Source of the DNA: a bacterium
Lineage (GTDB): Bacteria > Patescibacteriota > Minisyncoccia > Phycocordibacterales > VMGT01
Length of the DNA: 64,000 nucleotides
Assembly: GCA_030697645.1 (NCBI GenBank)
Contig: JAUYPI010000003.1
Location: 318-64,317, forward strand
Direction of reading: 5' to 3'
The notes beneath the pieces were generated by a model. That model was given only the letters and a program-made list of their open reading frames with translations. It was not told the DNA's origin and did no database searches. Shown here piece by piece: positions 1,369 through 62,565 of this stretch (positions within the stretch are counted from its first letter, which is position 1; each line of letters starts with the position of its first letter). The position numbers were made by a program, and so were the translations under genes.

Positions 1369-3102
1369 ATGTCACAAAAATTCTTTTTGTATGCTCGCAA
1401 GAGTACCGATGTCGAGGACAAGCAAGTTTTGAGCATTGATGCGCAAATTACGGAATTGCGCGCTTTCGCCAAAAATGAAAAGTTAGAAATCGTTGAGGAG
1501 TTTGTAGAAAAGCGTACGGCGAAAATTCCAGGTCGTCCCATTTTTGGCGAAATGATGAGGCGAATAGAGAAAGGTGAAGTGTCTGGGATTATCAGTTGGC
1601 ATCCCGATCGTTTGGCGCGCAATTCTGTGGACGGCGGACAGATTGTGTACTTTCTCGACATCGGAAACCTTGCGAGCCTCAAATTCCCTAGCCATTGGTT
1701 TGAAAACACGCCACAGGGCAAATTCTCGCTGTCTATGGCATTCGTACAAAGCAAATACTATGTTGATTCTCTTTCCGAGAACACGAAGCGTGGACTTCGC
1801 CAAAAAGTGAGAATGGGGATATTCCCAAGCCAAGCGCCAGTGGGTTATCTGAACGACAGTAGAACAAAGACGATAGTGGTGGAAAAGAAAAAATCTCGTA
1901 TCGTGCGCTTGGCTTTTGAGAAATACACGAAAGGAAATATGAGACTGGAAGATGTTTCAAACTTTTTGGCGAAGAACGGAATCAGTACGCGTTCCGGAAA
2001 GAGAATCTCAAAAACTAGAGTGTCTTTCATTTTGTCCAATCCGTTCTATGTCGGACTGTTTAACTACGCAAAAGAATTGCACGAAGGAAAACACGAGCCA
2101 ATCATTTCAAAGAAACTTTTTGATGAAGCACAAGAAATTTTGAAATCTCGCGGACAACCAGAGCGTAAACCACAAAACGAACCTCAACCTTTTTGCGGAC
2201 TTATTTCTTGTGCTTCTTGTGGAATGATGATAACTGGCGAACACAAATTCAAACGGCAGAAAAATGGAAATGTCCACGAGTATATCTACTATCACTGCAC
2301 AAAAAAGCGAAAAGTTTTTAAGTGTCCCGAATCTGCCGTTAGAGAAAAAGAATTGGATCGCCAGTTATCATCCCTAATCAAAAAAGTTTCTTTGCCCAAA
2401 GACTGGGCGGAGGAATTATTGAAAATGGCGAACAATGACCACAAAAATTCCGCCCAGTCTTTGACTGCTTGTGTGAAAGAGAAAGAGGAAAAGATTTCTT
2501 CTTTGTCGAAAAGGTTAGAGCGACTTCTTTCGGGTTATCTCGACCAAGATATTGAAAAGGAAATTTATCGTGTTGAAAAAGGAAAATTGATTTTGCAAAA
2601 GAAGTCGCTCGAAGAAGAAATCACTAATCTTTCACACAAGCAGAATGATTGGCTCGAACCGTTTACCGAGTGGCTGAAAGACGCACAATCATTGGACAAA
2701 ATTGCTTCTGATGATGACCTTTTTGCGAAAAAGGTCAAAGCCAAAGAAATCTTTGGCTCGAACCTGCTTCTTGGCGAAAAAACAGTCCGTCCCGCCGAAG
2801 GCGGGACTCCGAATTCGTTTGGAAAAATGGGGGGAAATCAGTGGGACGCGCTTCGCGCGTCCCACTTTCTGGCTTCCAAAAAGCCGTTTAGTTCGTTTGT
2901 GGTGCCGGAGGTGGGACTCGAACCCACAAGCCTTTCAGCATGCGATTTTGAGTCGCACGTGTTTGCCAATTTCACCACTCCGGCGCGAGGTTTTTTGCGG
3001 GCAGATCTACCAATGCCGCCACCCCGGCGCTGTGCAATGTACGGATTAGTGGTTTCAGTATATATGCTCCGGTGTATTTTTCAAACTCTCTATTCAAAGT
3101 AA
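1369..3102 (+). CDS. large serine recombinase (resolvase catalytic domain + recombinase domain + zinc ribbon + coiled coil)
   Basis: N-terminal YARKSTD..Q catalytic-serine motif. Zinc ribbon CGLISCASCG...YYHCTKK..KC. ORF runs with no stop through the right inverted repeat and antisense across tRNA-Leu, so the last ~115 codons are probably read-through or a fusion. Confidence 0.8.
   Translation: MSQKFFLYARKSTDVEDKQVLSIDAQITELRAFAKNEKLEIVEEFVEKRTAKIPGRPIFGEMMRRIEKGEVSGIISWHPDRLARNSVDGGQIVYFLDIGNLASLKFPSHWFENTPQGKFSLSMAFVQSKYYVDSLSENTKRGLRQKVRMGIFPSQAPVGYLNDSRTKTIVVEKKKSRIVRLAFEKYTKGNMRLEDVSNFLAKNGISTRSGKRISKTRVSFILSNPFYVGLFNYAKELHEGKHEPIISKKLFDEAQEILKSRGQPERKPQNEPQPFCGLISCASCGMMITGEHKFKRQKNGNVHEYIYYHCTKKRKVFKCPESAVREKELDRQLSSLIKKVSLPKDWAEELLKMANNDHKNSAQSLTACVKEKEEKISSLSKRLERLLSGYLDQDIEKEIYRVEKGKLILQKKSLEEEITNLSHKQNDWLEPFTEWLKDAQSLDKIASDDDLFAKKVKAKEIFGSNLLLGEKTVRPAEGGTPNSFGKMGGNQWDALRASHFLASKKPFSSFVVPEVGLEPTSLSACDFESHVFANFTTPARGFLRADLPMPPPRRCAMYGLVVSVYMLRCIFQTLYSK
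2758..2899. repeat. inverted-repeat copy 2 (3' flank of tRNA-Leu), partner of 1038-1179
   Basis: Direct sequence comparison; 108-bp perfect identity. Confidence 0.8.
2900..2984 (-). tRNA. tRNA-Leu (anticodon CAA), class II with long variable arm
   Basis: Minus-strand fold: acceptor GCCGGAG/CTCCGGC, 3-bp D stem, anticodon stem TGCGA/TCGCA with loop CTCAAAA, long variable arm, T-arm GTGGG-TTCGAGT-CCCAC, CCA encoded. Confidence 0.8.
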
Positions 3103-30520: not shown

Positions 30521-31014
30521 GATTTTACGTATGAGTAGATTGACTAAACTACACAAAAAGCGGAGGAGCTGACACTCGTCTTTGGTAGACTGTGTTCGTC
30601 CCATCCGCTCAAGGTGAGCGGTTTTTGTTTTGTCCGAACGATTGGACGATTGATTCTTTGTCAACAAAATAGGCCCCACGGCAAGAACGCATGGAGCGTT
30701 TTTAATTTCGATATTTTGAAATTTTGATATATCGAGGTGCCGGTGGCGGGCTAAAGCAAAAAGAATCAAATTAAGCAGGTAAAACCGTGCTTCGCACGGA
30801 CATTTCGAAATATCGATATATCGAAATTTCCGCGCGGAGCGCGGTAGCGGTTTTTCCGTTCCTCACAGGAATGGAAGCGCATATGGTGGATGCCTAGACT
30901 CCACATGGCGATGAAGGACGCGGCCTGGCGGCGATACGCTTCGGGGAGGTGCCTGGTAACCTTTGATCCGAAGATTTCCGAATGGGGAAACCCCTTTGCA
31001 TAAAACGCATTGAT

Positions 31015-31391
31015 CTGCCTGTATGTTTTGACTTTTGATTTTTGACAAAAAACCGACTGTCTGACACCTGACGTCAGAGCAGTCGGCCGCTTCGAACTCG
31101 CCCTCGATCCTTAACTTACATAGAGGATGAGGGAGAATGCGAGTAGTAAAAGCAATGCTGCGAGCATATACCAATATTTGTTGTTTTTATTGAGCTCGCG
31201 ATTTGCAGCCCCCAGCGCTTGCGCGGGCACTTCCTGCTCTTCCGTTCTGAGTAAGGAATGGGGATGCCTGTTATTGTGCATGGCATTGCTCCTAATCTAA
31301 GGTAAGAACTTTAAACTCACCCCGTGAGCTTACGTCACGAATATTTTATACTATAAGTATATTTTTGTCAAGAGTCAAAACATACAGGCAG
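31015..31391 (+). other. IVS-like insertion 1 in 23S (helix-9 region), AT-rich
   Basis: 18-bp terminal inverted repeats CTGCCTGTATGTTTTGAC / GTCAAAACATACAGGCAG. Shares internal TTGTCAAGAGTC with insertion 2. Carries ~57-codon ORFs on both strands; the antisense one ends in a hydrophobic helix. Confidence 0.6.
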
Positions 31392-31812
31392 AGGCATACC
31401 CAGGGAAGTGAAACATCTCAGTACCTGGAGGAAAAGAAAACAACCGTGCTTCGCACGGACATTTCGAAATATCGATATATCGAAATTTCCGCGCGGAGCG
31501 CGGCCATTCCCTTAGTAGCGGCGAGCGAAACGGGAGGAGCCTAAACCGTGCGCAGCACGGACATATCGATATTTCGAAATTTCGATATTTCCGCGCTGCG
31601 CGCGGTGTTGTACGGCAACGGCGTAGTTTAACTAGAGAAGTTACAAAGTGGTTTGTTAGCGGAATCTGCTGGAAAGCAGAGCCCCAGCGGGTAATAGCCC
31701 CGTACGCGAAAGCACGCCACCTTCTTTGCTGTTGTTCGTGAGTACCTCGGGACATGAATAGCCCGAGGGAATCTGGCAGGACTAACTGCCAAGGCTACAT
31801 ACGTGTGGAGAT

Positions 31813-31849
<37 letters not shown>

Positions 31850-32109
31850 CAGCCCGGTGAGGGCGGTGAAATAGACCTGAAACCATATGCGTACAAGGAG
31901 TCGGAGCTGCCGCACCTCATTGCATTCGGTGCGGACATTTCGATATTTCGAAATATCGATATATCGAAATGTCCACCGCGCCGAGTGTAGCGAGGTGCGG
32001 CGGTCACGGCGTGCCTATTGAAGAATGAGCCAACGAGTTGTCGTTTGTTGCCCGTCTAACCGCTTGTCGCGGGAAGGCATAGGGAAACCGAGTGTTAAAA
32101 GCGCGATCG

Positions 32110-32503
32110 CCTGCTCATATTTTTGGATTTTTATTAGTGGAAGTTAACTGAAACCGCCACGTTCATGTTAAACGTAGCGGTTTATCCCTGAGTCCAAGGA
32201 AGAGCGTCTTCCTCACCTTGTGAGGAAGAACCAGATTTTATCTGGAATGAGCTTTTGAAGGAAAGAGCCTGGAACAAGGAAATAAGCAAGTGCAATACAG
32301 ATCAAAAGCGGCCAATATATCCACCTTGGGACGAAATACCCGAGAAGATAGAAAACACCAGCAACGATACCAATAATGATATGACCTTTAAGGTTCATTT
32401 TCGTCTCCAATCTCGAATGAGGTGCCAGGGGGATGGGGGGTTCTCTATACAACAAATTAGTATAAATGTATTAATTTGTCAAGAGTCCAAAAATATGAGC
32501 AGG
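32110..32503 (+). other. IVS-like insertion 2 in 23S (helix-45 region, ~E. coli 1170), AT-rich
   Basis: Terminal inverted repeats CCTGCTCATATTTTTGGA / TCCAAAAATATGAGCAGG. Internal TTGTCAAGAGTC. Antisense ORF 32213..32455 encodes a small protein with two TM helices. Confidence 0.6.
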
Positions 32504-33784
32504 TACAGCAGCAAACGCCAGACCCGAAGCCGGGTGAGCTTGCCATGGGCAGGGTGAAGGCGATGGAAACATCGCTGGAGGCCCGAACCGGTCAGCCGTG
32601 CAAAACTGTCGGATGACCTGTGGCAAGGAGTGAAAAGCTAATCGAACTCGGTAATAGCTGGTTCTCTCCGAAATAGCTTTAGGGCTAGCGTTCTGTGTTC
32701 CTTCCGGGGGTAGAGCACTGGATGGAAAGAATAGGGAGCAATCTCGTCTTTCCAATCAAACTCCGAATACCGGAAGCACGCCGCACCTCATTGCATTCGG
32801 TGCGGACATATCGATATTTCGAAATTTCGATATGTCCGCCGCGCCGAGTGTAGCGAGGTGCGGCGGATAGCAGGGCAGTTAGACTATGGGGGCTAAGCTC
32901 CATTGGTCAAAAAGGGAAGAGCCTTTGATCTCCAGTTAAGGTCCCTAATACGGCGCTCAGTGCATCTTAAGGAAGTAGAGACCCACAGACAGTGAGGAGG
33001 TTGGCTTAGAAGCAGCCATCCTTTAAAGAAAGCGTAACAGCTCACTCATCGAGGGTTTCTGCGCCGCAGATTCACGGGGCTTAAGCGCCGAACCGAAACT
33101 GAGGATGCCGTGCGCAGCACGGACATATCGATATTTCGAAATTTCGATATTTCCGCGCTGCGCGCGGTGTGGTAGGAGAGCATCCTGCACCCGCAATGAA
33201 GCACGGGCGTGAGCTCCGTGTGGAGCGTGCAGGAGTGAGAATGTTGGCACAAGTAACCGCAATGCGGGTGAAAGCCCCGCACGCCGAAAGCCCAAGGTTT
33301 CCTTGGCGATGACAATCAGCCAAGGGTTAGTCGGGCCTTAGCCGATGGCGAAAGCCGGAGGTGATGGACACACGGTTAATATTCCGTGACCCGGATCCAT
33401 TTCGATGTGGTGACGGAGGAGATAAGCGGGGGCGCATTATTGGATTTGCGTCGCCCGTGCGAAGACGCGCCGCCTAGGTAAATCCGGACGGCACGCCGCC
33501 GCACCTCATTGCATTCGGTGCGGACATTTCGATATGTCGATATTTCGAAATGTCCGCCGCACCGAGTGTAGCGAGGTGCGGCGGTACCGTCGAGCGCGGT
33601 AGAAATTCCGGGGTTCGCCCCGGGAAATCCTCGCGAAGAGCCTTCCAAGAAAAACCACTAAGGCTAGGTGGATTCGGTCCGTACCGCAAACCGACACAGG
33701 TGGGCAGGTCGAGAAGACCAAGGCGAACGGGTGAGTGTTCCCCAAGGAACTCGGCAAAAAAGCAGCCGTAACTTCGGGATAAGG

Positions 33785-34330
33785 CTTGCCTTGTCGGGGC
33801 TGAAAGAAGGAAAATTTTGTTCTTTAAGGAGACGATCAATGGATAGCATAGGTGGGAGGCTGAATTATTGGAGCGGCGAAAAATCCAATAGAAATACCAG
33901 CCGTCAGTGGAATACCACCCTTGATCGTTTTCGTCCGGAAATTCGCTTAAAAACCGAGTTTCCGGTTGAGTTCAGTGGAGCAAATCGGGCGTTTAGTCGA
34001 GTGCTTCCATGCCGTGTAAAATAGCGCTTGTCTGATTTGCTCCGCCAGTCCAATGGAGCGGTCAGGCCGGAGAGTTCTCCTGCAATACGTGGGTGACCCA
34101 TGAGAGGTTGCTACGTTCCCTTGCAAGGTTCTGTAAAAATCTCCCGCCCTGCCGAGTGGTTGAAGTCCACGCCGCTCCAACCCGACCAATGGGGTAGATC
34201 ATGGATACTTTCTGGGATATTGGGAGTGATAACCTCCGAACCCAATTTCCGGAGTAGCAAGTATGCATGGTCTACTCCTTCAATCAATCGGGGGATGTCT
34301 CTGATATCCCCTCCTTCTTTCAGCTCCGAT
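33785..34330 (+). other. ~545-bp insertion in 23S domain IV (between CTTGTCGGGGCTGAAAGAAGG and CCTTCTTTCAGCTCC) containing a divergent copy of a domain-V segment
   Basis: GGATAGCATAGGTGGGAGGCT...GCCGTCAGTGGAATACCACCCTT duplicates the canonical block at 34990-35060. Confidence 0.45.
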
Positions 34331-34589
34331 GAGGCCGCAGCGAAAGTACCCCTGCCGACTGTTTACCAAAAACACAGCTCCCTGCGAACTCGCAAGAGAA
34401 TGTATAGGGGGTGATGCCTGACCAATGCCGGAAGGTCAAACAGTGGTGGTGACCGCATCACACGGCGTGTGATGCGGACATATCGATATTTCGAAATTTC
34501 GATATGTCCGCATCGCGCTTCGCGCGATGCGGTTGCTGGCCGCTGTAAGCCCCGGTGAATGTCGGCCATAACTATAATGGTCCTAAGGT

Positions 34590-34818
34590 CACGGCTCTCT
34601 TGATTTTTCAAGGGAGTCGTGAGGACTGGGACTATTATAGCGGTAAACAGAAAGTGCAAGCTACCTTATCGTGCGGTAACGCACGAATTAGTCCGCACCA
34701 CGACTCACATGAGAGGCCATACGTCGTGCTCCGACACCACTTTTTGGTTTCAGTCTTAGCTGAAACCAAAAAGTGGTGTCGGGTGAAGATATGGTCCTTC
34801 GCAAGAAGGAAAGCGAAG
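34590..34818 (+). other. compact ORF-less group I intron at the L1917 site
   Basis: 5' exon ends in U (CCTAAGGT). Intron ends in G. Exon ligation restores GGT|AGCGAAATTCC. P7-3' strand like GAAGATATGGTCC followed by a P9 hairpin. Confidence 0.6.
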
Positions 34819-35478
34819 AGCGAAATTCCTTGTCCTCTAATTAGGGACGCGCACGAATGGCATAACGAGTGGGGGACTGTCTCGGGGAACAGCCCGGTGA
34901 AAATACAATCCCGGTGAAGATGCCGGGTACCTGCAGCTAGACGAAAAGACCCTAGAAGCTTTACTATAACTTGATATTGGTCGTATGTTTCCACTGCGTA
35001 GCATAGGTGGGAGGCTTTGAAGCTCTGCTCTCGGGCAGCGTGGAGCCGTCAGTGAAATACCACTCTGTGGGAGTGTACGCTCTAACCTCGACGGCAAAAA
35101 CGGCGAGGGACAGTATCTGGTGGGTAGTTTTGTTGGGGCGACATCCTGAAAGTTCTGCGAAAGGAGGCCTTTCGCAGCGTCGTCCCGGATCGTCATTTAT
35201 TCCTGACGGTTCGAAGCCGTGCGTGGCACAGAATTTCCAATTTCCAATAACCAATTTCCAATAAAATGTCCAATGTTTCAATTTCCAATGTTCAAACGTT
35301 CATGTTTGAGATTTTGAATTTGAGATTTGGAATTTGTTTGGAAATTTAACACTTGGAGCTTGGAGCTTCCGCGCCGCGCGCGGCGAAGGGGATCCCGTAT
35401 GGCAACATGCGGGCAAACATCTTGCTATTTGCTGGAACAGCCGGCGTATCTGGCACTACCATGAGAGGAGGATGATAC

Positions 35479-35667
35479 ATGTATTATCTTTTACAGATCC
35501 AAACGAATGAGGAAATTATGTTCACCGAAAAAGATGATCACCGTGCGCTTCGAGAAGCGCGCAAGTATCTTTGGGAGCATGGAATAACGAAAGAGGACGG
35601 ATCAAAAGTTAAGCACGAAGTCACCGTTACCCTTTCAGGGTTACTGCGACGGATCAAAACATGGTGA
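35479..35667 (+). CDS. intron-encoded hypothetical protein (62 aa), no endonuclease motif
   Basis: Strong RBS GAGAGGAGGA 8 nt before the ATG. Low GC. Confidence 0.45.
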   Translation: MYYLLQIQTNEEIMFTEKDDHRALREARKYLWEHGITKEDGSKVKHEVTVTLSGLLRRIKTW

Positions 35668-35713
35668 AAATGTGACCAGTGCGGCCAACCAGCAGGGAAG
35701 GAGAAAATTACCA

Positions 35714-35950
35714 ATGAGTGCAGCAACACCAGTGGATGATCTTGGTGAAACAAAGACAAAGATAAATATTGTAAAGGAGTTAGACGATATTTTACACGAT
35801 TACAAGTCTGAACGCTTCAAGTTAGATACGGTGGCGTATCATGTATCAGTGCCTGCAGGAGAAACAGAGAAAGAAAGAGAACGATTAGCTAAGCAGACGC
35901 TGAAAAAATGTCTTTGGCTGGTAGTTAATTATCTCACCCTCAACGACTAA
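35714..35950 (+). CDS. intron-encoded hypothetical protein (79 aa; ORF track gives 35672)
   Basis: RBS GGGAAGGAG 9 nt before ATG 35714. Directly follows the previous ORF. No known homing-endonuclease family motif. Confidence 0.45.
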   Translation: MSAATPVDDLGETKTKINIVKELDDILHDYKSERFKLDTVAYHVSVPAGETEKERERLAKQTLKKCLWLVVNYLTLND

Positions 35951-36342
35951 ACGCAGGATTCCTTACCGACGGGCGATTTCGCTCGTCGGTAAGGAAAAGA
36001 TATAGTCTGATCTCCATGGCGACATGGAGAGGCACGCAGAAATGACGTGCCCGCGCCGTGCTTCGCACGGAAATTTAAATATTTAAACATTTAAACTTCC
36101 GCGCGGAGCGCGGCGGGCAACAACAATGCCTAAAAAGTAACGGAGGAGTCTATTAAGGTCGGCTAGGCGCGAATGGAAACCGTGCCGATAGTGTAAGGGC
36201 ACAAGCCGGCTTCACTGCGAGGCGTACATGCCAAGCAGATGCGAAAGCAGAGCCTAGTGAACCGACGGTTCGCTTTAGAAGCGGCCGAAGATTAACGGAT
36301 AAAAGCTACTCTAGGGATAACAGGCTGGTACCGCCCAAGAGT

Positions 36343-37205
36343 CAATGAGGCTCCCTCTGGCGGCAACGTCAGAGTAAACTGTGACTCAAATCGGTGAAAT
36401 CCAGCGTTCGCAATTTGCAATTTCTAATTCCCAATTTCGAATTAGTAGTTGATAATTCGTAATTGCGTCAGCTGGACAATACCGAGGGTAAGAGAACTTG
36501 AAATTTGTTATATGGAAACAAAACGCGCACAACGCGCTCGTGTGCTACCTCTCGACCAGAGGCAGCGTGAGATCGTTATCGGATCTCTCCTAGGAGACGG
36601 ACATTTGGCACGGACAACGCGAGGATATGCGTTCCGGGTCAATCACGGGATAGGACAGCGTGAGTATGTTAATTGGAAGTATCAGGAGCTCGAGTCGTTT
36701 ACGAACTCGAGGCCGAATACATGTGATCGATCGTACTATTTTCGCACCGTATCTCACCCGTACTTCGACGAGTTGCGTCGTGTGTTCTATGTTGGCAATC
36801 GAAAAATAATTCCAGAAATGCTTGAGGGCTGGTTGACGCCACTCGTGTTCGCCGTGTGGTTTATGGACGACGGCACGCGAGACGGAAAACAAGTTCGACT
36901 GAATACGCAATGCTTCAGAAGAGAAGAGCACGAACTGCTCGTGTTTCTTTTACAAGCTAAACTCGGGATAACGGCGACAATCAATCGAGATAAAGCCCAG
37001 TACCGTTTGCGCGTGTGCGAGAAAAGCATGCCGCGCTTTCGAGCACTGGTGTCCCCGTTGATTATTCCGAGCATGCGCTACAAGTTCTCCCCGTAACGAC
37101 TTCCGCATTTCACTGCGGGGACTGCGGGCTTAAAAAGCCGCAGTAAAACGTCACCGTCCCGAAAGGGACGAAGGTATAGTCTACCTCATGAGTAATCATG
37201 AAGTG
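36343..37205 (+). other. group I intron at L2449 (863 nt) encoding a LAGLIDADG endonuclease
   Basis: 5' exon ends U (CAAGAGT). Intron ends G. Ligated exons give CAAGAGT|CCATATCGCCGGCGG. GAAGGTATAGTC P7-3' at ~37172. Confidence 0.8.
36512..37096 (+). CDS. LAGLIDADG homing endonuclease (two-motif, single-chain)
   Basis: Motifs LLGDGHL and WFMDDGT. Start METKRAQRA; ORF track gives 36449. Confidence 0.85.
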   Translation: METKRAQRARVLPLDQRQREIVIGSLLGDGHLARTTRGYAFRVNHGIGQREYVNWKYQELESFTNSRPNTCDRSYYFRTVSHPYFDELRRVFYVGNRKIIPEMLEGWLTPLVFAVWFMDDGTRDGKQVRLNTQCFRREEHELLVFLLQAKLGITATINRDKAQYRLRVCEKSMPRFRALVSPLIIPSMRYKFSP

Positions 37206-37264
37206 CCATATCGCCGGCGGTGTTCGGCACCTCGATGTCGGCTCACCTCATCCCGGGGCTGGAG

Positions 37265-37550
37265 AAAACAGACCTTCTCTCCTTCGCGGAAACGCGAGGG
37301 TAATAAACGAGCTCAAAACGGTGAAGGCCTTGAGTTAAAGGTTAACGCCGTAGGAAGCCCACTAGTAATTAGTTCCTAGTAACTGGTAATTAGTGTGGCC
37401 CTCTAACGACTGAATCCCGCAAAATGCGGGATGAGATAGAACCATCGCCACGGGTTCTATAATACGGCTCGCACCTACGGTCCGTCTCAGAGGCGGACTA
37501 CGGTGAAGGCATAGTCTGATATCCGTAGTAATACGGGCAAACACAAACTG
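37265..37550 (+). other. small ORF-less group I intron near L2500 (boundaries ±5)
   Basis: Follows exon GGGGCTGGAG. Exon resumes AGGTCCCAAGGGTATAGCTG. GAAGGCATAGTCTG P7-3' plus P9 hairpin near the 3' end. Confidence 0.55.
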
Positions 37551-37606
37551 AGGTCCCAAGGGTATAGCTGTTCGCTATTTAAAGAGGTACGCGAGCTGGG
37601 TTCAGA

Positions 37607-37949
37607 CCGTCCAGGACGTGAATTATGAATGAAGAATCATGAGTCATGGATTGGACAGTCTGAACCCGCATCGAAACTTTTCGTCTATGAAAAATGAAAA
37701 AGGCCTAAACGCACTATACAGTGCGTCGGCCAAGGAACCCCACTATCGCTAAAGCTATGGTGGGCGAGACCAATCATATCACGGCGGTCGCCCGCAGTAA
37801 TGCGGGACGAAGAAGCTGACTATATCGGTGGAACCCTGTTTTACACAGGACAACACCGAGGGAAGTCCGCGTGACCCCGTAGAGACTACATGTCAGCCCT
37901 CCGATTTTATCGGAGAAAGGTATAGTCCAATGCACACAGTAATGTGTGG
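37607..37949 (+). other. small ORF-less group I intron near L2593 (boundaries ±5)
   Basis: Follows exon GCGAGCTGGGTTCAGA. Exon resumes (A)AACATGCGTGAGACAGGTTGGTC. GAAAGGTATAGTCC P7-3' near the 3' end. Confidence 0.55.
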
Positions 37950-38098
37950 AAACATGCGTGAGACAGGTTGGTCTCCTATCTGCTGCAGGCGTTGATTCTT
38001 GAGGGGAGTCGTTCCTAGTACGAGAGGACCGGAATGAACGAACCTCTGGTCTATCGGCTGTCCCGCCAGGGGCACCGCCGAGTAGCTATGTTCGGAAT

Positions 38099-38131
<33 letters not shown>

Positions 38132-38375
38132 AATCCCAAGATGAGGAATCGCGTCGCCGCATCACACGGAGTGTGATGCGGACATATCGATATTTCGATA
38201 TATCGAAATTTCCGCATCGCGCTTCGCGCGATGCGGCGGCATCGGCCCGTGGGAGATGACCACGTTGATAGGCACCAGGTGTACGCGCAGTAATGCGTTT
38301 AGCCGAGGTGTACTAATCCGCCGAAATTCCTGTGAGGAATAGAGGAACCGCGTCGTACCTCGCTCGGGCTCGGTG

Positions 38376-38530
38376 CGGAATTTCCAATTTCCAATTTTAC
38401 AATTTCCAAATAATTTCCAATGACCAAATTTCCAATTTCCAAACACGACGCCGGATGTCGCTCGTCGTTTGAAAATTGACTCATTGAAAATTTATTGAAA
38501 ATTGAAAATTGATAATTGAAAATTCCGTGT
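38376..38530. repeat. palindromic element, family A/B hybrid (CCAATTTCC arms, core CAAACACGACGCCGGATGTCGCTCGTCGTTTG) in the 23S-5S spacer
   Basis: Seen directly. Confidence 0.7.
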
Positions 38531-38599
38531 CGAGCACATGGGGGTGTTGAAAAACTTTTACCTGCTTCTTTTTGCTTATTTTTTCGCGACGTTTCGAAC

Positions 38600-38718
38600 G
38601 CCGCGTGCTGGTGATTTATCGCCGGGGCCACACCTGTTCTCATTCCGAACACAGAAGTTAAGCCCGGCTGAGGCGATGGTACTCGAAAGGGGAGAGTAGC
38701 TCGTCGCCAGCACGCGGC
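38600..38718 (+). rRNA. rrf: 5S ribosomal RNA
   Basis: Helix 1 GCCGCGTGCTGG / CCAGCACGCGGC. Loop C CCGAACACAGAAGTTAAGC. GAGAGTAG motif. Confidence 0.8.
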
Positions 38719-58752: not shown

Positions 58753-61700
58753 ATGATGGTACGACTCTACCGTCATGTCATCGGAGAGTGTCCCGCTTTT
58801 GAGGATTGTTTTTACATCGACTTCCTCTCGGCTCCTAATACGCAACAGACCGCGCTCATGAGATGGCTCCTCACCGAGCCACTCACCACAGTCTCCGAGG
58901 AGTCTTGCTTCGGTGATCTTGATGTCGTCGAGATCGGTCCGCGGCTCTCTGCCGAGACACCGTTCTCTTCAAACGCGGTTGCAATCTGTGTCTCAATGGG
59001 GCTTTCCGTGCGGCGAATCGAGCGGTCGGTTCGTTATTGTTACGGCGATGGCCTGGGCATATCGCGAACGCCAAATCGGGACGAGGTGCTGCAGCAACAC
59101 CTTGATCGCATGAGAGAGACGGTCTATCCGTCGACACTCACGACGTTTGACTCATGTCTCAAACCGGAGCCGGTGAGCTTCGTTCAGCTGCTTGAAGGCG
59201 AGGATGCCTTGCGAGACGCGAACAAAAAGCTCGGCCTCGGCATGGATGACTGGGATATCGTCTACTACAGAAAGCTGTTCCAGCGCCTCGGACGCAATCC
59301 GACCGACGTTGAGCTGTTCCAGATCGGCAATGCAAACTCCGAACATAGCAGGCACTGGTTCTTCCGTGGTATCCAGGCGATCGACGGCAAGGAAATGCCG
59401 GAGAGCCTCATGGATGTCGTGCGGGAGCCGTGGCAGCGCAGTGCAGGAAATAGCATCACCGCGTTCAAGGACAACGCCGGCGTGATACGGGGTGTCGAAG
59501 TTTTAGCGTTTGCTCCTACCAAACAGGGGCAACCGTCCCCGTTTGGGACCGTCGAGGTGCTCCAGCATATCACAGCGACGGCGGAGACACACAACCATCC
59601 GACGCTCATCGCGCCATTCCCTGGTGCCGAGACCGGTACCGGCGGGCGGATCCGCGACAATCGGGCGGTGGGTCGAGGCGGTCTTGTTCACGCGGGGCTT
59701 GCGGGCTACTCTGTGGGTAATCTGCATATCCCCGGATTCGAGATCCCGGGGGAGGCGGCACGCGGCGAAGACAGTCGCTCTGCGGCGACCCCGCTTGAGA
59801 TCCTCATTCGGGGTAGCGACGGCATCTCTGACTACGGTAATAAAATCGGTGAGCCACTCATCGGAGGGTTTACGCGATCGTTCGGCCAGATGTTCAATCG
59901 TGAACGTCGCGAATTCAGAAAACCGGTTCTCTACAGTGCCGGTTTCGGACGCATCAGAGATATGCACGTCGCCAAGCAGCAGCCGGAGAGGGGTATGCTT
60001 ATCGTGCGCATCGGTGGCCCAGCATACCGGATCGGTGTTGGGGGCGGCAGTGCCTCAAGCATGATCCACGGACATCAAGATGAGGAGCTCGACTTCAAGT
60101 CGGTACAGCGCGGTAATGCCGAAATGGAAAACAGGGCCAATCGGGTCATCCAAGCGTGCGCCGAAATGGGCACGGTCAATCCGATTGAGAGCATCCACGA
60201 CCAAGGAGCCGGTGGCCCCAGCAATGTCCTCACGGAGTTGATGGAACCGGCTGGCGGCACGGTCGACATCCGCAAGATCATCGTGGGCGACACAACCATG
60301 TCCGTTCTCGAGATTTGGGTTGCTGAATATCAAGAGGGGTACGGCTTACTCGTGCGACCGGAGAATATCGAGGTGTTCCAGTCGATCTGTACGCGCGAGC
60401 GCGTGAACTGCGAAGTGTTGGGCCTTATCACCGGCGACGGCACTGTTGTCGTCGAGGATTCCGCCGATGGCACGACGCCGGTTAATCTCTCCCTCAAAGA
60501 AATCCTGGGGGAGTTGCCCCGGAAGCGGTTTGAATCGAATCGCCCGCATGTGGCATTGCAGTCACTCGTGATCCCGGAAGGGCTCACGGTGGACGAAGCT
60601 CTGCGGCTGGTGTTTTTGCTTCCTCACGTCGGTTCCAAGGGCTTCTTGGTTCGGAAAGTGGATCGCTCGGTCACGGGCTTGGTGGCGAGGCAGCAGTGCT
60701 GTGGGCCGACCCAAGTGCCGGTCGCTGACGCGGCAGTTACCGCTGATGGCTATTTTGGTTTCACCGGAGCGGCATCCGCCCTCGGCGAGGCGCCGATCAA
60801 GATGCTCATTGATCCGAAGAAAGGCGCTCGCATGGCGGTCGCAGAAATGCTCACCAACCTCGCAAGTGTCCGCATCACCACACTCTCGGACGTGAAGTGC
60901 CGCGCCAACTGGATGTGGGCGGCAAAGCAACCGGGGGAAGGCGCGCTGCTCTATGAAGCCGCCGTCGCAATGCGAGACTTCATGGTTCGACTCGGTATCG
61001 CTAGCGACGGAGGCAAGGATAGTCTTTCTATGGAGACGGTAGTCGGGAAAAGTCTCGTGATTTCGCCTGGTGAGTTGGTCGTCATGGGCTACGCACCGGT
61101 ACCAGACGTGAGAAAGGTGGTCACTCCCGATTTTAAGGGAAGTGGCTGTCTTGGCTACGTCAACCTCTCTGGCTCGTACTCGCGGCTCGGTGGTTCTGCG
61201 CTCGCCGAGGTGCTCGGGCAGGTGGGAGACGAGACTCCGGACGTCGACGCATCGTATCTCGCAGCTGCTTTCGCGGCTGTGCAGGAGCTGATCGAGAAAG
61301 GTCTGATTACCGCGTACCACGATGTGAGTGACGGCGGACTCATCACTGCCGTTACGGAAATGTGCATGGCGGGCAACCGCGGCGCGCGTCTTCAGTGCAA
61401 GGAGGGCATAGATCCCCTTTCAGTGCTTTTTTGCGAAGAGGCGGGTATGCTGTTTGAGTTCGAAGCGAAGTCAGAGGGAGCAATCACGCGCGTGACGCAT
61501 ACTCATGGCGTGCATTATGATCAAATTGGGACAGTCGGTTCCAGCCCTGGAGGCAGCCTGCACATCGAGAGAGGTCGAACCACATTGCTTGATCGCAGTG
61601 TGGTGGACCTCAGAAAGTGGTGGGAAGCGACGAGCACTGCGCTCGAGAAGCTCCAGGCCAATCGAGAAACGGTAGAAGCCGAGAGCAGAAGTCATGGAGA

Positions 61701-62565
61701 GGTGAGGACTGTCGAATATCACCTCTCCTTCATACCGAAAGCCCGGAGCGTGCGCACGACGCACCGCCCAAAGGTTGCGATTTTGCGTGAGGAAGGAACC
61801 AATGGCGATCGGGAGATGGCCGCGGCCTGTTTCACCGTCGGCTTCGAGCCGTGGGACATCACGATGAGCGATCTCTTCGACGGAAGGGTAACGACGCTCG
61901 ACACTATGCGCGGCGTTATTTTCCCCGGCGGGTTTTCGTTCGCAGATGTTTTCGGAAGCGCGAAGGGCTGGGCTGGCCCAATCCGATTCAATCCAAGCGT
62001 GAGCGAAATCTTTGACCGGTTCTATGACCGGCCGGATACCTTCTCGCTCGGCGTCTGCAATGGCTGCCAGTTAATGGCGAACATTGGCTGGTTGCCATGG
62101 AAAGGCATTTCGGAGGACGCACAGCCTCGATTCGTTCACAATACATCAGGGCGTTTCGAGTCTCGGTGGGCGGCGGTGAAGGTGTTGCCGAGCCCGTCGA
62201 TTTTGATGCGTGGCATGGAAGATTCGGTGCTCGGCATTCATGTCGCACACGGCGAAGGGCGGATGTTATTTCCGGATCCGCGCATCATGGGGGAAATCCG
62301 AGAGCGGCAACTTGTCCCGCTTGTCTATGTCGATGTAGAAGGCAAAGCCACCGAAGAGTATCCATACGATCCAAACGGATCGCCCTTAGGATGGACGGCT
62401 CTCTCGTCGCCGGACGGCAGGCATCTTGCGATGATGCCGCACCCAGAGCGCAGCTTCCTAACGTGGCAATGGCCGTGGATGCCGGAGAAGTGGCGTACCA
62501 CGCTCAAGGCCTCGCCGTGGCTCGAGATGTTCCAGAACGCCTGCGACTGGTGCTCTAAGGGCTAG
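58753..62565 (+). CDS. purL: phosphoribosylformylglycinamidine synthase, large single-chain type
   Basis: 1270 aa. AIRS-like domains plus C-terminal class I glutamine amidotransferase (LGVCNGCQLM). AAGGAGG RBS. Confidence 0.9.
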   Translation: MMVRLYRHVIGECPAFEDCFYIDFLSAPNTQQTALMRWLLTEPLTTVSEESCFGDLDVVEIGPRLSAETPFSSNAVAICVSMGLSVRRIERSVRYCYGDGLGISRTPNRDEVLQQHLDRMRETVYPSTLTTFDSCLKPEPVSFVQLLEGEDALRDANKKLGLGMDDWDIVYYRKLFQRLGRNPTDVELFQIGNANSEHSRHWFFRGIQAIDGKEMPESLMDVVREPWQRSAGNSITAFKDNAGVIRGVEVLAFAPTKQGQPSPFGTVEVLQHITATAETHNHPTLIAPFPGAETGTGGRIRDNRAVGRGGLVHAGLAGYSVGNLHIPGFEIPGEAARGEDSRSAATPLEILIRGSDGISDYGNKIGEPLIGGFTRSFGQMFNRERREFRKPVLYSAGFGRIRDMHVAKQQPERGMLIVRIGGPAYRIGVGGGSASSMIHGHQDEELDFKSVQRGNAEMENRANRVIQACAEMGTVNPIESIHDQGAGGPSNVLTELMEPAGGTVDIRKIIVGDTTMSVLEIWVAEYQEGYGLLVRPENIEVFQSICTRERVNCEVLGLITGDGTVVVEDSADGTTPVNLSLKEILGELPRKRFESNRPHVALQSLVIPEGLTVDEALRLVFLLPHVGSKGFLVRKVDRSVTGLVARQQCCGPTQVPVADAAVTADGYFGFTGAASALGEAPIKMLIDPKKGARMAVAEMLTNLASVRITTLSDVKCRANWMWAAKQPGEGALLYEAAVAMRDFMVRLGIASDGGKDSLSMETVVGKSLVISPGELVVMGYAPVPDVRKVVTPDFKGSGCLGYVNLSGSYSRLGGSALAEVLGQVGDETPDVDASYLAAAFAAVQELIEKGLITAYHDVSDGGLITAVTEMCMAGNRGARLQCKEGIDPLSVLFCEEAGMLFEFEAKSEGAITRVTHTHGVHYDQIGTVGSSPGGSLHIERGRTTLLDRSVVDLRKWWEATSTALEKLQANRETVEAESRSHGEVRTVEYHLSFIPKARSVRTTHRPKVAILREEGTNGDREMAAACFTVGFEPWDITMSDLFDGRVTTLDTMRGVIFPGGFSFADVFGSAKGWAGPIRFNPSVSEIFDRFYDRPDTFSLGVCNGCQLMANIGWLPWKGISEDAQPRFVHNTSGRFESRWAAVKVLPSPSILMRGMEDSVLGIHVAHGEGRMLFPDPRIMGEIRERQLVPLVYVDVEGKATEEYPYDPNGSPLGWTALSSPDGRHLAMMPHPERSFLTWQWPWMPEKWRTTLKASPWLEMFQNACDWCSKG

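Follow-up and report, generated by a model that had tools for sequence, protein, structure and literature searches.

The window, by which we mean the whole 64,000-nt stretch of DNA analyzed here, comes from an uncultured, ultra-small bacterium of the CPR, Parcubacteria-like by its sequence, with Wildermuthbacteria, Paceibacterota and Nomurabacteria as the nearest named ValRS relatives of the host. Its 23S rRNA gene (30862-38336) carries ~4.5 kb of insertions in total. One of these, at the site that we call L2262, has the features of a group I intron and encloses two small ORFs, ORF1 and ORF2 (Table 1); a neighboring intron in the same gene, at 36343-37206, carries a standard LAGLIDADG_2 gene. 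Loci with related introns, or with the intron-less site, are designated by three-digit labels (L001 and so on).

Table 1. Features of the L2262 intron and its flanking exons, in window coordinates
Feature	Position	Strand	Details and basis
5' exon end	35135..35147	+	P-loop GGGGCG + ACAUCCU; intron-less L013 allele shows the ligated form
Group I intron	35148..36128	+	981 nt, 23S site L2262; RF00028 match, border sequence, helix table
Enlarged L1 loop	35148..35387	+	hairpin 35155-35177, AT-rich inverted repeat 35253-35357, GC palindrome 35366-35388
Internal guide sequence GGGGAU	35388..35393	+	pairs with exon AUCCU (P1), U.G at splice site
P2 hairpin, GCAA loop	35394..35413	+	pairing in relatives
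5' strands of P3 (35420-35425), P4 (35429-35435), P5 (35440-35443) and P5a (35450-35456)	35420..35456	+	RF00028 alignment, helix table
P5b 5' strand UACCAUG	35457..35463	+	partner CAUGGUG at 35660-35666
ORF1 Shine-Dalgarno GAGAGGAGGA	35463..35472	+	sequence
ORF1, 62 aa, in P5b terminal loop	35479..35667	+	homologues, dN/dS 0.05-0.12
3' strands of P5b (35660-35666), A-rich bulge AAAAU, P5a (35672-35679), P5 (35682-35685) and P4 (35689-35695)	35660..35695	+	helix table
P6 5' strand (GGG), overlapping ORF2 Shine-Dalgarno GGGAAGGAG	35695..35703	+	sequence
ORF2, 78 aa, filling loop L6a	35714..35950	+	78 aa from ATG; predicted helical, pI 5.6
P6 3' (35937-35941), P7 5' GACUA (35945-35949), P3 3' GCAGGA (35953-35958)	within 35937..36007	+	RF00028 alignment, helix table
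P8 hairpin (35959-35996); J8/7 and P7 3' AAGAUAUAGUC (35997-36007)	within 35937..36007	+	alignment, helix table
P9 (36011-36030, GCGA loop), P9.1 (36031-36051), variable P9.2 with GC palindrome, terminal G 36128	36011..36128	+	helix table
3' exon start	36129..36148	+	CCUAAAAAGUAACGGAGGAG, helix 81

The L2262 intron and its ribozyme

The original prediction of a group I intron in domain V of the 23S rRNA was borne out by the Rfam group I model RF00028, which matched 35306-36029 at 54.8 bits (gathering score 50; E 3.7e-11). An ORF-less sister intron at the same site, L010b, scored 50.4 bits. The catalytic core is intact, and the alignment assigned one large insertion to the P5 loop and another to the P6 loop; the ORFs lie in L5b and L6a. 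The interval first proposed, 35157-36122, captured the intron itself but missed its ends, now set at 35148-36128, by 9 and 6 nt, and the insertion point, thought to lie near E. coli position 2250, mapped instead after U2262 (in numbering corrected for a 7-nt offset in the E. coli copy used).

The 5' exon ends in ...GGGGCGACAUCCU at 35147, where U35147, the equivalent of E. coli U2262, supplies the U of the P1 U.G pair, and the final intron nucleotide, G36128, stands directly before the 3' exon. Joining both exons restores helix 81 and yields GGGGCGTAATCCTCCTAAAAAGTAACGGAGGAG, the same sequence as in the intron-less relative L013; the predicted ligated junction matches the intron-less allele in L013/L016, and the uninterrupted L2262 target site reads GGGGCGNNATCCTCCTAAAAAGTAACGGAGG. 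On this indirect evidence, guanosine-dependent self-splicing and exon ligation are predicted for the intron.

The helices of the ribozyme are conserved as pairings. P2, P3, P5a, P5b, P8, P9 and P9.1 stay paired, with compensatory changes, despite differing sequence in up to 8 related introns, and P4, P5 and P7 are nearly invariant among the related introns compared. P2, for example, pairs at 8 of 8 positions in the window intron, L001 and L002 and at 7 of 8 in L017, with differing sequences. P1 covaries in L010b, where a compensatory change sets exon UUUCCU against guide GGGGGA. The same intron has a P5abc-like architecture like that of the window intron but with a simple loop, and reads UACUCUC-UGUC-GAGAGUG at the P5b position. 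RNAalifold of the L5b insert offered a local GCCGG/CCGGC hairpin in place of the long-range P5/P5a pairing; we rejected it because L012, L020 and L013a, ORF-less in this comparison, can form only the long-range pairing.

The L1 loop is much larger than its equivalent in sister introns, which spans only about 30-66 nt. It contains a GC palindrome, TTCCGCGC-N3-GCGCGG, that has nine matches in the window against 0.72 expected, eight of them in or adjoining the rRNA operon. Two copies lie inside the intron (35366-35388 and 36096-36118), in agreement with the palindromic element that had been reported there.

Two small ORFs in two peripheral loops

Both of the predicted Shine-Dalgarno-led ORFs are present, at 62 aa for ORF1 and 78 aa from its ATG for ORF2, which also has an alternative GTG start at 35672 (92 aa; NCBI call). 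The description of their ribosome-binding sites as unusually strong held up in a crude count: of the 34 long ORFs of the window, just 5 had a Shine-Dalgarno sequence of at least 5 nt at their first start. The two genes do not form the cassette that had been envisaged: they occupy different loops, L5b and L6a, and are separated by the 3' strands of P5b, P5a, P5 and P4 and the 5' strand of P6. Each gene also shares sequence with the ribozyme. The last two codons and stop of ORF1 (ACA UGG UGA) are the 3' strand of P5b, and the UAA stop of ORF2 lies inside the P7 5' strand GACUAA.

Four homologues of ORF1 were found, each 62-63 aa long and 73-87% identical to it. DNA was recoverable for three of them, over the four loci L001-L004 (L002 and L003 carry identical sequence), and in every case the gene lay in the same intron. 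The family was met only in this intron, and wherever a contig reached an exon (L001-L003) the intron occupied the same 23S site as in the window. Differences between ORF1 sequences are concentrated at third codon positions (9/6/30 at the three positions in one example), and dN/dS is 0.05-0.12, with a dS of 0.6 to >2 that brings synonymous sites near saturation. Residues 48-62 are encoded where the RNA also forms a conserved hairpin and the P5b strand, so their conservation is partly RNA-level; without the overlapping codons, dN/dS was at most 0.09 in four of six pairs, the other two being saturated at synonymous sites. The block E17-K-D-D-H-R-A-L-R-E26 is invariant, with synonymous changes only. 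At these dN/dS values, a chance or decayed ORF is ruled out for ORF1. Secondary-structure prediction gives it, at low confidence, the order strand-strand-helix-strand.

The L6a loop behaves differently. In the sister introns that keep ORF1, the L6 slot holds at least three unrelated, intact, Shine-Dalgarno-led ORFs instead of the window ORF2. All six of the L6 ORFs found are open. Three, complete and mutually unrelated, run in the sense direction over 85-100% of the insert and each have a Shine-Dalgarno sequence and ATG (73-86 aa, pI 4.8-6.7); the other three are partial and stay open up to the contig end. A homologue of the window ORF2 was found in L017, with 30% identity over 43 columns (pairwise E 9e-6), whereas the flanking ribozyme segments of the two introns are 89-93% identical; selection on the window ORF2 is judged on the basis of one partial homologue. 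In L012 and in the viral contig L030, L6 holds a LAGIIDGEGN ORF, which by sequence makes L6 the endonuclease slot of this intron lineage. We found no small-ORF remnants in the ORF-less L6 of L010b or L013a, and in L010b this segment folds as a single long hairpin.

The two ORFs are also distributed separately. ORF1 has at least four different partners in the ORF2 position, none related to another (it is kept in L001, L002/L003 and L004, whose ORF2s are unrelated), L017 has an ORF2 homologue together with a different L5b ORF, and L010b has neither ORF at the same site. Because partners vary in this way among sister introns, ORF1 and ORF2 do not behave as a co-adapted pair, and the joint inheritance expected of toxin-antitoxin genes was not seen across these introns; the toxin-antitoxin-like pair originally suggested is thus disfavored. 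Overall, the site exists in three allele states: intron-less (L013/L016), with an ORF-less intron (L010b) and with an ORF-bearing intron. Two other ways of linking the ORFs were discarded. Their fusion through a +1 frameshift is excluded by L002, whose +1 frame runs into a stop codon overlapping the ATG of ORF2, and membership of ORF1 and the various ORF2s in one fold or family found no significant pairwise BLAST or hhalign match except between the window and L017 ORF2s.

Outside the sister introns, nothing related to ORF1 was detected in sets of 1.8-5.8 billion proteins, in Pfam or in PDB. Exact look-up of the ORF1 and ORF2 proteins returned no record. An ORF1 HMMER profile run against 1.84 billion representatives recovered itself and three long repeat proteins, which we set aside because their scores accumulate over repeats. 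ORF1 had no match in Pfam, PHROGs, NCBIfam, PADLOC or PDB sequences, ORF2 had none in Pfam, PHROGs, NCBIfam or PADLOC and no full-length homologue among 5.8 billion proteins, and five sister-intron small ORFs gave only sub-threshold noise in Pfam and PADLOC; matches to DUF956, ERp29_N, OsmC and DUF4860 in the family scans were below threshold and treated as noise. Back-translated searches found nothing for ORF1 in genome, metagenome and viral collections or for ORF2 in viral contigs, and the small ORFs have no paralogues elsewhere in the window. A tblastn match of ORF1 to Pseudomonas phage YH6 (E 0.04) is antisense to an annotated N4 gp52-like gene and was rejected. AlphaFold models of the two ORFs were poor (pLDDT 50.6 and 65.5), and Foldseek of these low-confidence models against PDB matched no fold (best E about 3). 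Literature searches on site L2262 or on small CPR intron ORFs gave nothing specific.

The absence of homing-endonuclease motifs noted in the original prediction extends to whole profiles. No match to LAGLIDADG, GIY-YIG, HNH, His-Cys, PD-(D/E)xK or EDxHD families was obtained for ORF1, ORF2 or the sister small ORFs at E<=10 in Pfam, NCBIfam, PHROGs and PDB sequences, while the ORF of the neighboring intron, our positive control, matched LAGLIDADG_2 at 9e-43. By these profile searches, neither ORF looks like a decayed endonuclease, the outcome that had been named as a possible refutation. [quoted passage not shown]

Possible roles of the two proteins

Taken as a single statement about anatomy and evolution, we consider the following probable: a structurally intact group I intron lies after U2262 of the host's single 23S rRNA gene; two of its peripheral loops were invaded independently by small Shine-Dalgarno-led genes; ORF1 is a genuine protein gene, interlocked with the ribozyme and maintained by strong purifying selection in five sister introns or more; and the ORF2 slot is exchangeable. 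Because the ORF2 Shine-Dalgarno sequence overlaps P6 and the stops of ORF2 and ORF1 lie in P7 and P5b, one RNA molecule could not be translated and folded as a ribozyme at the same time. Both proteins would most likely be translated from the excised intron RNA, the output of which would be proportional to rRNA transcription. ORF1 would then most likely be an intron-dedicated nucleic-acid-binding protein, and ORF2 would be exchangeable cargo in the classical endonuclease slot.

For ORF1 itself, we tentatively favor a maturase-like role in splicing or folding, because a cell with a single 23S gene would not survive without splicing, and the tight purifying selection would thereby be accounted for. 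The points that bear on this role (the selection, the single 23S gene and the interlock with P5b) are circumstantial, and others count against it: ORF1 is only mildly basic (pI 8.1), its sequence has no recognizable RNA- or DNA-binding motif, and comparison with the ORF-less L010b revealed no obvious RNA degeneration for a helper protein to offset. The next option, a minimal homing or persistence factor, seems to us unlikely. In its stricter form, this option would make ORF1 either a novel homing endonuclease of minimal size that works as a multimer or a homing factor that binds DNA specifically at the L2262 site, with ORF2 as unrelated cargo. Its location in a terminal loop, where endonuclease genes lie, is consistent with this, as are the presence/absence polymorphism at the intron-less, ORF-less and ORF-bearing levels, the invariant E17-E26 block and the restriction of the family to this intron, at L2262 where an exon is reached (a related intron at the L1931 site has a different, 65-aa ORF in L5). 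At 62 aa, however, ORF1 is far smaller than known homing endonucleases, of which the smallest known to us is ~150 aa; it matches no endonuclease family at E<=10; and its purifying selection, which extends beyond synonymous saturation, is unlike the gain-decay cycle of homing genes. This last argument is tempered by reports that CPR LAGLIDADG genes are also long retained (PMC11270868). On balance, we judge the stricter form rather unlikely.

The remaining alternatives concern ORF2 or both genes. ORF2-type genes could be conflict cargo (anti-defense, immunity or effector-like small acidic proteins) in an rRNA-expressed slot beside a conserved partner, loosely like a variable acr gene beside a conserved aca gene. 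The turnover of the slot among unrelated but always intact ORFs fits such a role, as do the steep drop in identity from ribozyme to ORF2 between the window and L017 and the occurrence of the same intron lineage in viral contigs. Nevertheless, the analogy is one of pattern only, gene order and spacing are unlike those of acr-aca loci, and no PADLOC or PHROGs match or relative in viral contigs was found; we regard this role as improbable. That one or both ORFs are non-functional, as chance ORFs or leftovers of a decaying endonuclease, is very improbable. The want of a full-length ORF2 homologue, the low-confidence structure predictions and the practice in published CPR surveys of classing as ORF-less any intron in which Pfam annotates no ORF (PMC11270868) would agree with it, but for ORF1 the dN/dS excludes it, the complete L6 ORFs are too fully formed (unrelated, filling nearly all of their inserts, with Shine-Dalgarno sequence and ATG), three more partial ones are open to the contig end, and neither ORF resembles LAGLIDADG or other endonuclease families. 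We give the least credence to a toxin-antitoxin-like addiction pair that stabilizes the intron. The genes are small, adjacent and on the same strand, with opposed pI values (8.1 for ORF1, 5.6 for ORF2), the toxin gene also comes first in hicAB systems, and ORF1 residues 25-42 weakly match the first helix of HicA (hhalign probability 14%, pairwise E 0.0019). This lead was dropped: the comparison, with an 8-sequence alignment built from plasmids, covered 18 columns and left the catalytic His and the C-terminal half of HicA unmatched. In addition, searches of Pfam, NCBIfam and PADLOC matched no toxin or antitoxin family, ribozyme helices lie between the two genes, which form no operon-like unit, and the exchange of partners described above speaks against co-adaptation.

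Beyond the favored helper role, ORF1 might found a class of minimal (~60 aa) group I intron proteins, alongside an L6a accessory-gene platform in CPR rRNA introns; we think this combined proposal doubtful, if conceivable. The P5b-interlocked ORF1 would in that case be required for the L2262 intron to splice or to spread, and L6a would swap unrelated small acidic proteins, expressed off the most strongly transcribed gene of the cell.

Comparison with known intron-encoded proteins

To our knowledge, the ORFs of group I introns almost always encode homing endonucleases or maturases derived from them. The L2262 intron departs from this norm in having a 62-aa orphan under strong purifying selection in a ribozyme loop, within an rRNA gene that is essential and single-copy, and in an adjoining loop that exchanges unrelated small genes. 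Should ORF1 turn out to help splicing or to be a minimal mobility factor, no smaller protein of that kind would be known, and it would lend itself easily to biochemistry; if the L6 genes were conflict cargo, they would reveal a new route by which bacteria with reduced genomes carry accessory genes and express them.

In their terminal-loop location, own translation signals, optional presence and extension into ribozyme core sequence, the window ORFs are like the endonuclease genes of group I introns (I-CreI, I-TevI and the CPR enzyme I-ShaI). They are unlike them in size (62 and 78 aa) and in matching no family motif or profile, and the swapping of ORF2 for unrelated sequences at one target site would not be tolerable for a site-specific enzyme. 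LAGLIDADG-derived maturases such as those of yeast bI3 and A. nidulans I-AniI are about 250 aa or more. As with these proteins, a need for splicing would explain the retention of ORF1 in its proposed role; unlike them, ORF1 is very short, has no LAGLIDADG fold signal and accompanies an RNA with no visible degeneration. The fungal mitochondrial rnl group I intron mL2449 carries the ribosomal protein gene rps3, which, like ORF1, is a non-endonuclease gene resident long-term in a large-subunit rRNA intron under purifying selection. That gene is organellar and encodes a recognizable ribosomal protein, whereas ORF1 and ORF2 are bacterial and match no ribosomal or other family.

Group I introns in CPR 23S rRNA were reportedly described by Brown et al. 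in 2015. A small helical protein encoded within 23S insertions, 23S_rRNA_IVP, has also been reported in CPR (PMC11270868); the window ORFs are similar in kind but, unlike this protein of RNase III-type IVS elements, lie in ribozyme loops and have no Pfam match. In the CPR survey of Tsurumaki et al. (2024), intron ORFs were annotated by Pfam only and were almost exclusively LAGLIDADG or GIY-YIG, and nearly half of CPR 23S group I introns were classed as ORF-less (PMC11270868). Since Pfam-only surveys count introns like the present one as ORF-less, a hidden layer of small intron proteins may be missed. The window intron differs from those surveyed in having two small orphan ORFs in two loops. 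It resembles other CPR/Patescibacteria 23S group I introns in its host group and gene, in the many insertions per 23S, and in the polymorphic presence or absence of ORFs beside highly similar ribozyme parts.

The intron and its 23S rRNA gene

The intron lies on a 73.6-kb contig of a metagenome-assembled genome, where its two open reading frames, ORF1 and ORF2, are annotated as hypothetical proteins (Q8R39_00550 and Q8R39_00555). Because the nearest named relatives of the host's valyl-tRNA synthetase belong to Candidatus Wildermuthbacteria, Paceibacterota and Nomurabacteria (67-69% identity), the host is, judging from that protein, a Candidate Phyla Radiation (CPR) bacterium of the Parcubacteria type. 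Its 23S gene holds at least eight insertions relative to that of E. coli, in agreement with published CPR rRNA genes (PMC11270868). The gene scored best in Rfam with the archaeal LSU model (1311 bits), not the bacterial one, and the 23S-5S pair (30862-38712) has no adjoining 16S gene within the window.

The Rfam group I intron model matched 35306-36029 at 54.8 bits (threshold 50), bearing out the original prediction of a group I intron here, and in the alignment two very large insertions fall in the P5 and P6 loops. The predicted borders (35157-36122) were short by 9 and 6 nt: the intron spans 35148-36128 (981 nt, last nucleotide G), with the 5' exon ending in GGGGCGACAUCCU at 35147 and the 3' exon starting with CCUAAAAAGUAACGGAGGAG at 36129. 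When joined, the exons form helix 81 (AUCCUCC...GGAGGAG) and are identical to the intron-less related 23S gene of loci L013/L016 (GGGGCGTAATCCTCCTAAAAAGTAACGGAGGAG). The insertion site is directly 3' of the P-loop; it follows E. coli U2262, not a position around 2250 (numbering corrected for the 7-nt offset of the E. coli copy used), and is called L2262 here.

Among the other insertions in this gene, the next intron downstream contains a J8/7-like AGGTATAGTC near 37172, and the Rfam group I model stays below threshold on it. Three short insertions that have no ORF are probably small or degenerate group I introns: the 229-nt one is at the L1931 site, with AGATATGGTC at 34787, and the other two gave sub-threshold matches to the group I model of 30 and 45 bits. 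A further insertion (33786-34357) contains a putative coding ORF of 61 aa (33839-34024) that is basic, is led by a Shine-Dalgarno site (SD; AAGGAG) and has no match in Pfam.

Features of the window and loci of related introns
Feature	Coordinates or locus	Context
23S rRNA gene	30862-38336	~4.5 kb over normal size (Rfam)
5S rRNA gene	38607-38712	downstream of 23S (Rfam)
ORF1	35479-35667	62 aa
ORF2	35714-35950	78 aa
Next intron after L2262 intron	36343-37206	LAGLIDADG_2 ORF 36449-37096 (Pfam E 9e-43)
Short 23S insertions without ORF	34590-34818, 37259-37538, 37735-37949	
GC palindrome copies	30825-30849, 31486-31508, 31588-31610, 33150-33172, 35366-35388, 36051-36073, 36096-36118	
AT-rich hairpins	31541-31610, 33103-33172, 34453-34533, 34718-34792, 38153-38241, 38394-38509	Rfam sub-threshold 'miRNA'
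Same intron, site L2262	L001, L002/L003, L010b	23S
Same intron by sequence	L004, L017	contigs end within intron
Sister intron, L1931 site	L010a, L005, L013a	23S
Related intron	L012, L020	non-rRNA
Related intron	L029, L030	IMG/VR viral contigs
LAGIIDGEGN ORF in L6	L012 1103-1723; L030 9285-9938 (IMG/VR contig)	intron interrupts non-rRNA gene

Related introns in other contigs were recovered by exact look-up of ORF1 homologues (L001-L004) and with a 20-base pattern spanning P3-P5 (L005-L031). The contigs of L029 and L020 are equal in size, and that of L017 is an inverted duplication, probably created by misassembly at a hairpin, whose centre is the GC palindrome that immediately precedes the guide sequence. 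Across these introns P2, P3, P5a, P5b, P8, P9 and P9.1 retain full or nearly full pairing despite sequence differences (P3 variants include UCUUGC/GCAGGA, UCCCGC/GCGGGA, UCUCGC/GCGAGG and CCCCGC/GCGGGG). Immediately 5' of P2, the guide GGGGAU forms P1 together with AUCCU of the exon, a U.G pair marking the splice site; exon and guide read UUUCCU and GGGGGA in L010b, and P1 thus shows covariation with the exon. One arm, composed of P5, P5a, P5b and the A-rich bulge AAAAU, resembles P5abc; P9, P9.1 and a variable P9.2 are present as well, with L1 and P9.2 of the window copy additionally enlarged by hairpin modules of the same genome. To judge from the sequence, the ribozyme core is intact, with no damage apparent.

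Two ORFs in two loops

The two ORFs, their SDs and the palindromic elements are all present as originally described, and the SDs are indeed unusually strong: by a crude count at the first start of each long ORF in the window, an SD of at least 5 nt precedes only 5 of 34. The picture of a tandem two-gene cassette was wrong, however, because the 3' strands of P5b, P5a, P5 and P4 and the 5' strand of P6 lie between the ORFs, which are independent insertions in L5b and L6a (the loops of P5b and P6). The P5b strands UACCAUG (35457-35463) and CAUGGUG (35660-35666) enclose an SD and ORF1, nothing more; at this place L010b has UACUCUC-UGUC-GAGAGUG, and in other relatives the loop is short, GAAA for example. 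As the last codons of ORF1 (ACA UGG UGA) form the P5b 3' strand, all ORF1 homologues share the C-terminal ending K-[TK]-W-stop. L6a is taken up by ORF2, whose SD (GGGAAGGAG) overlaps the P6 5' strand and whose stop codon UAA lies inside the P7 strand GACUAA. In the non-rRNA intron L012 and the viral L030, L6 encodes an ORF with a LAGIIDGEGN motif, and L6 is therefore where this intron lineage normally carries its endonuclease gene; Pfam, run on the L012 copy only, did not recognize the ORF at E<=0.1.

ORF1 is a real, conserved gene under purifying selection. Its four homologues in ENA metagenome contigs are 62-63 aa long and 73-87% identical; the three with fetchable DNA correspond to four loci, L001-L004 (L002 and L003 have the same sequence), all within this intron; the contigs that extend into an exon (L001-L003) place it at site L2262 as well. 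Differences are weighted to third codon positions (e.g., 9/6/30), and dN/dS is 0.05-0.12 at a dS of 0.6 to >2 (Nei-Gojobori). With the 15 C-terminal codons, where ORF1 overlaps RNA helices, removed, dN/dS was <=0.09 in 4 of 6 pairs, the other two being synonymous-saturated, and the block E-K-D-D-H-R-A-L-R-E has synonymous changes only. A hairpin within ORF1 (GUCAC-GUUACCC-UUUCA-GGGUUAC-UGCGAC; 35617-35647, codons 47-57) is found in all four sister sequences, with wobble or one-sided changes only and one U-U mismatch in the window copy. It overlaps the most conserved stretch of the protein and could be an RNA element, serving as a protein-binding site or in translational control.

A word-indexed search of 5.8 billion proteins returned only ORF1 and these four homologues, and full HMMER against 1.84 billion representatives added only matches that we rejected as repeat-protein artefacts. 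Pfam, PHROGs, NCBIfam, PADLOC and PDB sequences gave no match, and a phage tblastn match was rejected as antisense to a real gene. The AlphaFold model (strand-strand-helix-strand) is of low confidence (pLDDT 50.6) and had no fold match. In its P5 arm the L1931 sister intron has an SD-led orphan ORF of 65 aa (MPEYLIEYES...; L010 2148-2345, identical in L005) that differs from ORF1, and L6 of L010 is free of ORFs; the L2262 intron is therefore not the only one to have a small orphan ORF in that arm.

In the protein database ORF2 matched only itself; its single partial homologue, encoded in L017 (30% identical across 43 aligned columns; pairwise E 9e-6), sits alongside a 66-aa L5b ORF with no demonstrable relationship to ORF1 (hhalign E 0.06). 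In L001, L002/L003 and L004, where ORF1 is 81-87% identical, the L6a ORFs (73, 86 and >59 aa) are unrelated to ORF2 and to one another; every one begins with an ATG behind an SD, and those that are complete occupy 85-100% of the insert. An ORF begins at the same L6a place in the contig of the fifth homologue, and L010b lacks both ORF1 and ORF2. The reading frames of all observed L6 ORFs are open, a pattern that speaks against neutral decay; that they are unrelated at one fixed target site speaks against a site-specific enzyme. The predicted ORF2 structure has three helices (pLDDT 65.5; pI 5.6) and no fold match. Together, these comparisons suggest that ORF2 is exchangeable cargo, possibly conflict-related, a role for which PHROGs, PADLOC and viral-contig searches gave no specific support, and hint that the L6 slot is an overlooked cargo system.

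Possible roles and known parallels

The ribosome-binding site of ORF2 and both stop codons overlap ribozyme helices, so translation and catalysis would exclude each other in time on one molecule; most plausibly, the proteins would be translated from the intron RNA after its excision, so that their production would track rRNA synthesis. For ORF1 we tentatively favour an intron-dedicated RNA-binding or splicing helper, because with one 23S gene a protein required for splicing would be under just such selection, and because the gene is structurally tied into P5b. Three points weigh against such a role: the RNA architecture is no different in the ORF-less sister intron, the ORF1 protein has only a mild basic character, and no maturase of 62 aa is known. 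The main rival is that ORF1 acts as a minimal homing factor, as presence/absence polymorphism at three levels and its exclusive tie to this intron, at L2262 wherever the exon is present, might indicate, but its small size and absence of motifs leave this improbable. The toxin-antitoxin-like addiction pair raised in the original prediction is quite unlikely: ORF1 occurs with unrelated L6a ORFs and the ORF2 homologue with a different L5b ORF, a free re-assortment that argues against co-adapted partners. A suspected similarity of ORF1 to the HicA toxin was dropped after a purpose-built alignment gave an hhalign probability of 14% over one helix.

The element is a group I intron and is grouped with the rRNA introns of CPR bacteria, whose annotated ORFs are nearly all LAGLIDADG or GIY-YIG genes (PMC11270868). 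The neighbour intron in the same gene has a standard LAGLIDADG_2 homing-endonuclease gene. What sets the L2262 intron apart is its protein content, a conserved small orphan in one loop and a swapped one in another. Published CPR surveys tested intron ORFs against Pfam alone (PMC11270868; PMC13011429) and would have counted this intron as ORF-less. Our literature search found no paper describing such small intron ORFs. ORF1, an orphan within a ribozyme, is clearly delimited, under strong constraint and amenable to experiment. The two closest functional parallels are LAGLIDADG-derived maturases and the rps3 gene carried by the rnl intron of fungal mitochondria, neither of which counts as a membership match.

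Hairpin modules and other features of the window

A GC-rich palindrome (TTCCGCGC-N3-GCGCGG) has nine matches in the window against 0.72 expected, eight of them in or beside the rRNA operon (two being one site on both strands) and a weak one at 60773. Its copies usually lie beside AT-rich hairpins, and together the two look like a small hairpin-module family colonising rRNA insertions. Elsewhere, a large serine recombinase gene (CcrB/XisF-like, E 5e-38; 1369-3102) lies directly downstream of a tRNA gene (964-1034), and the two could mark the edge of an integrated element. The window also encodes a single-chain FGAM synthase of 1270 aa (58753-62565; TIGR01735, 1435 bits); genes for de novo purine synthesis are unusual in CPR genomes.
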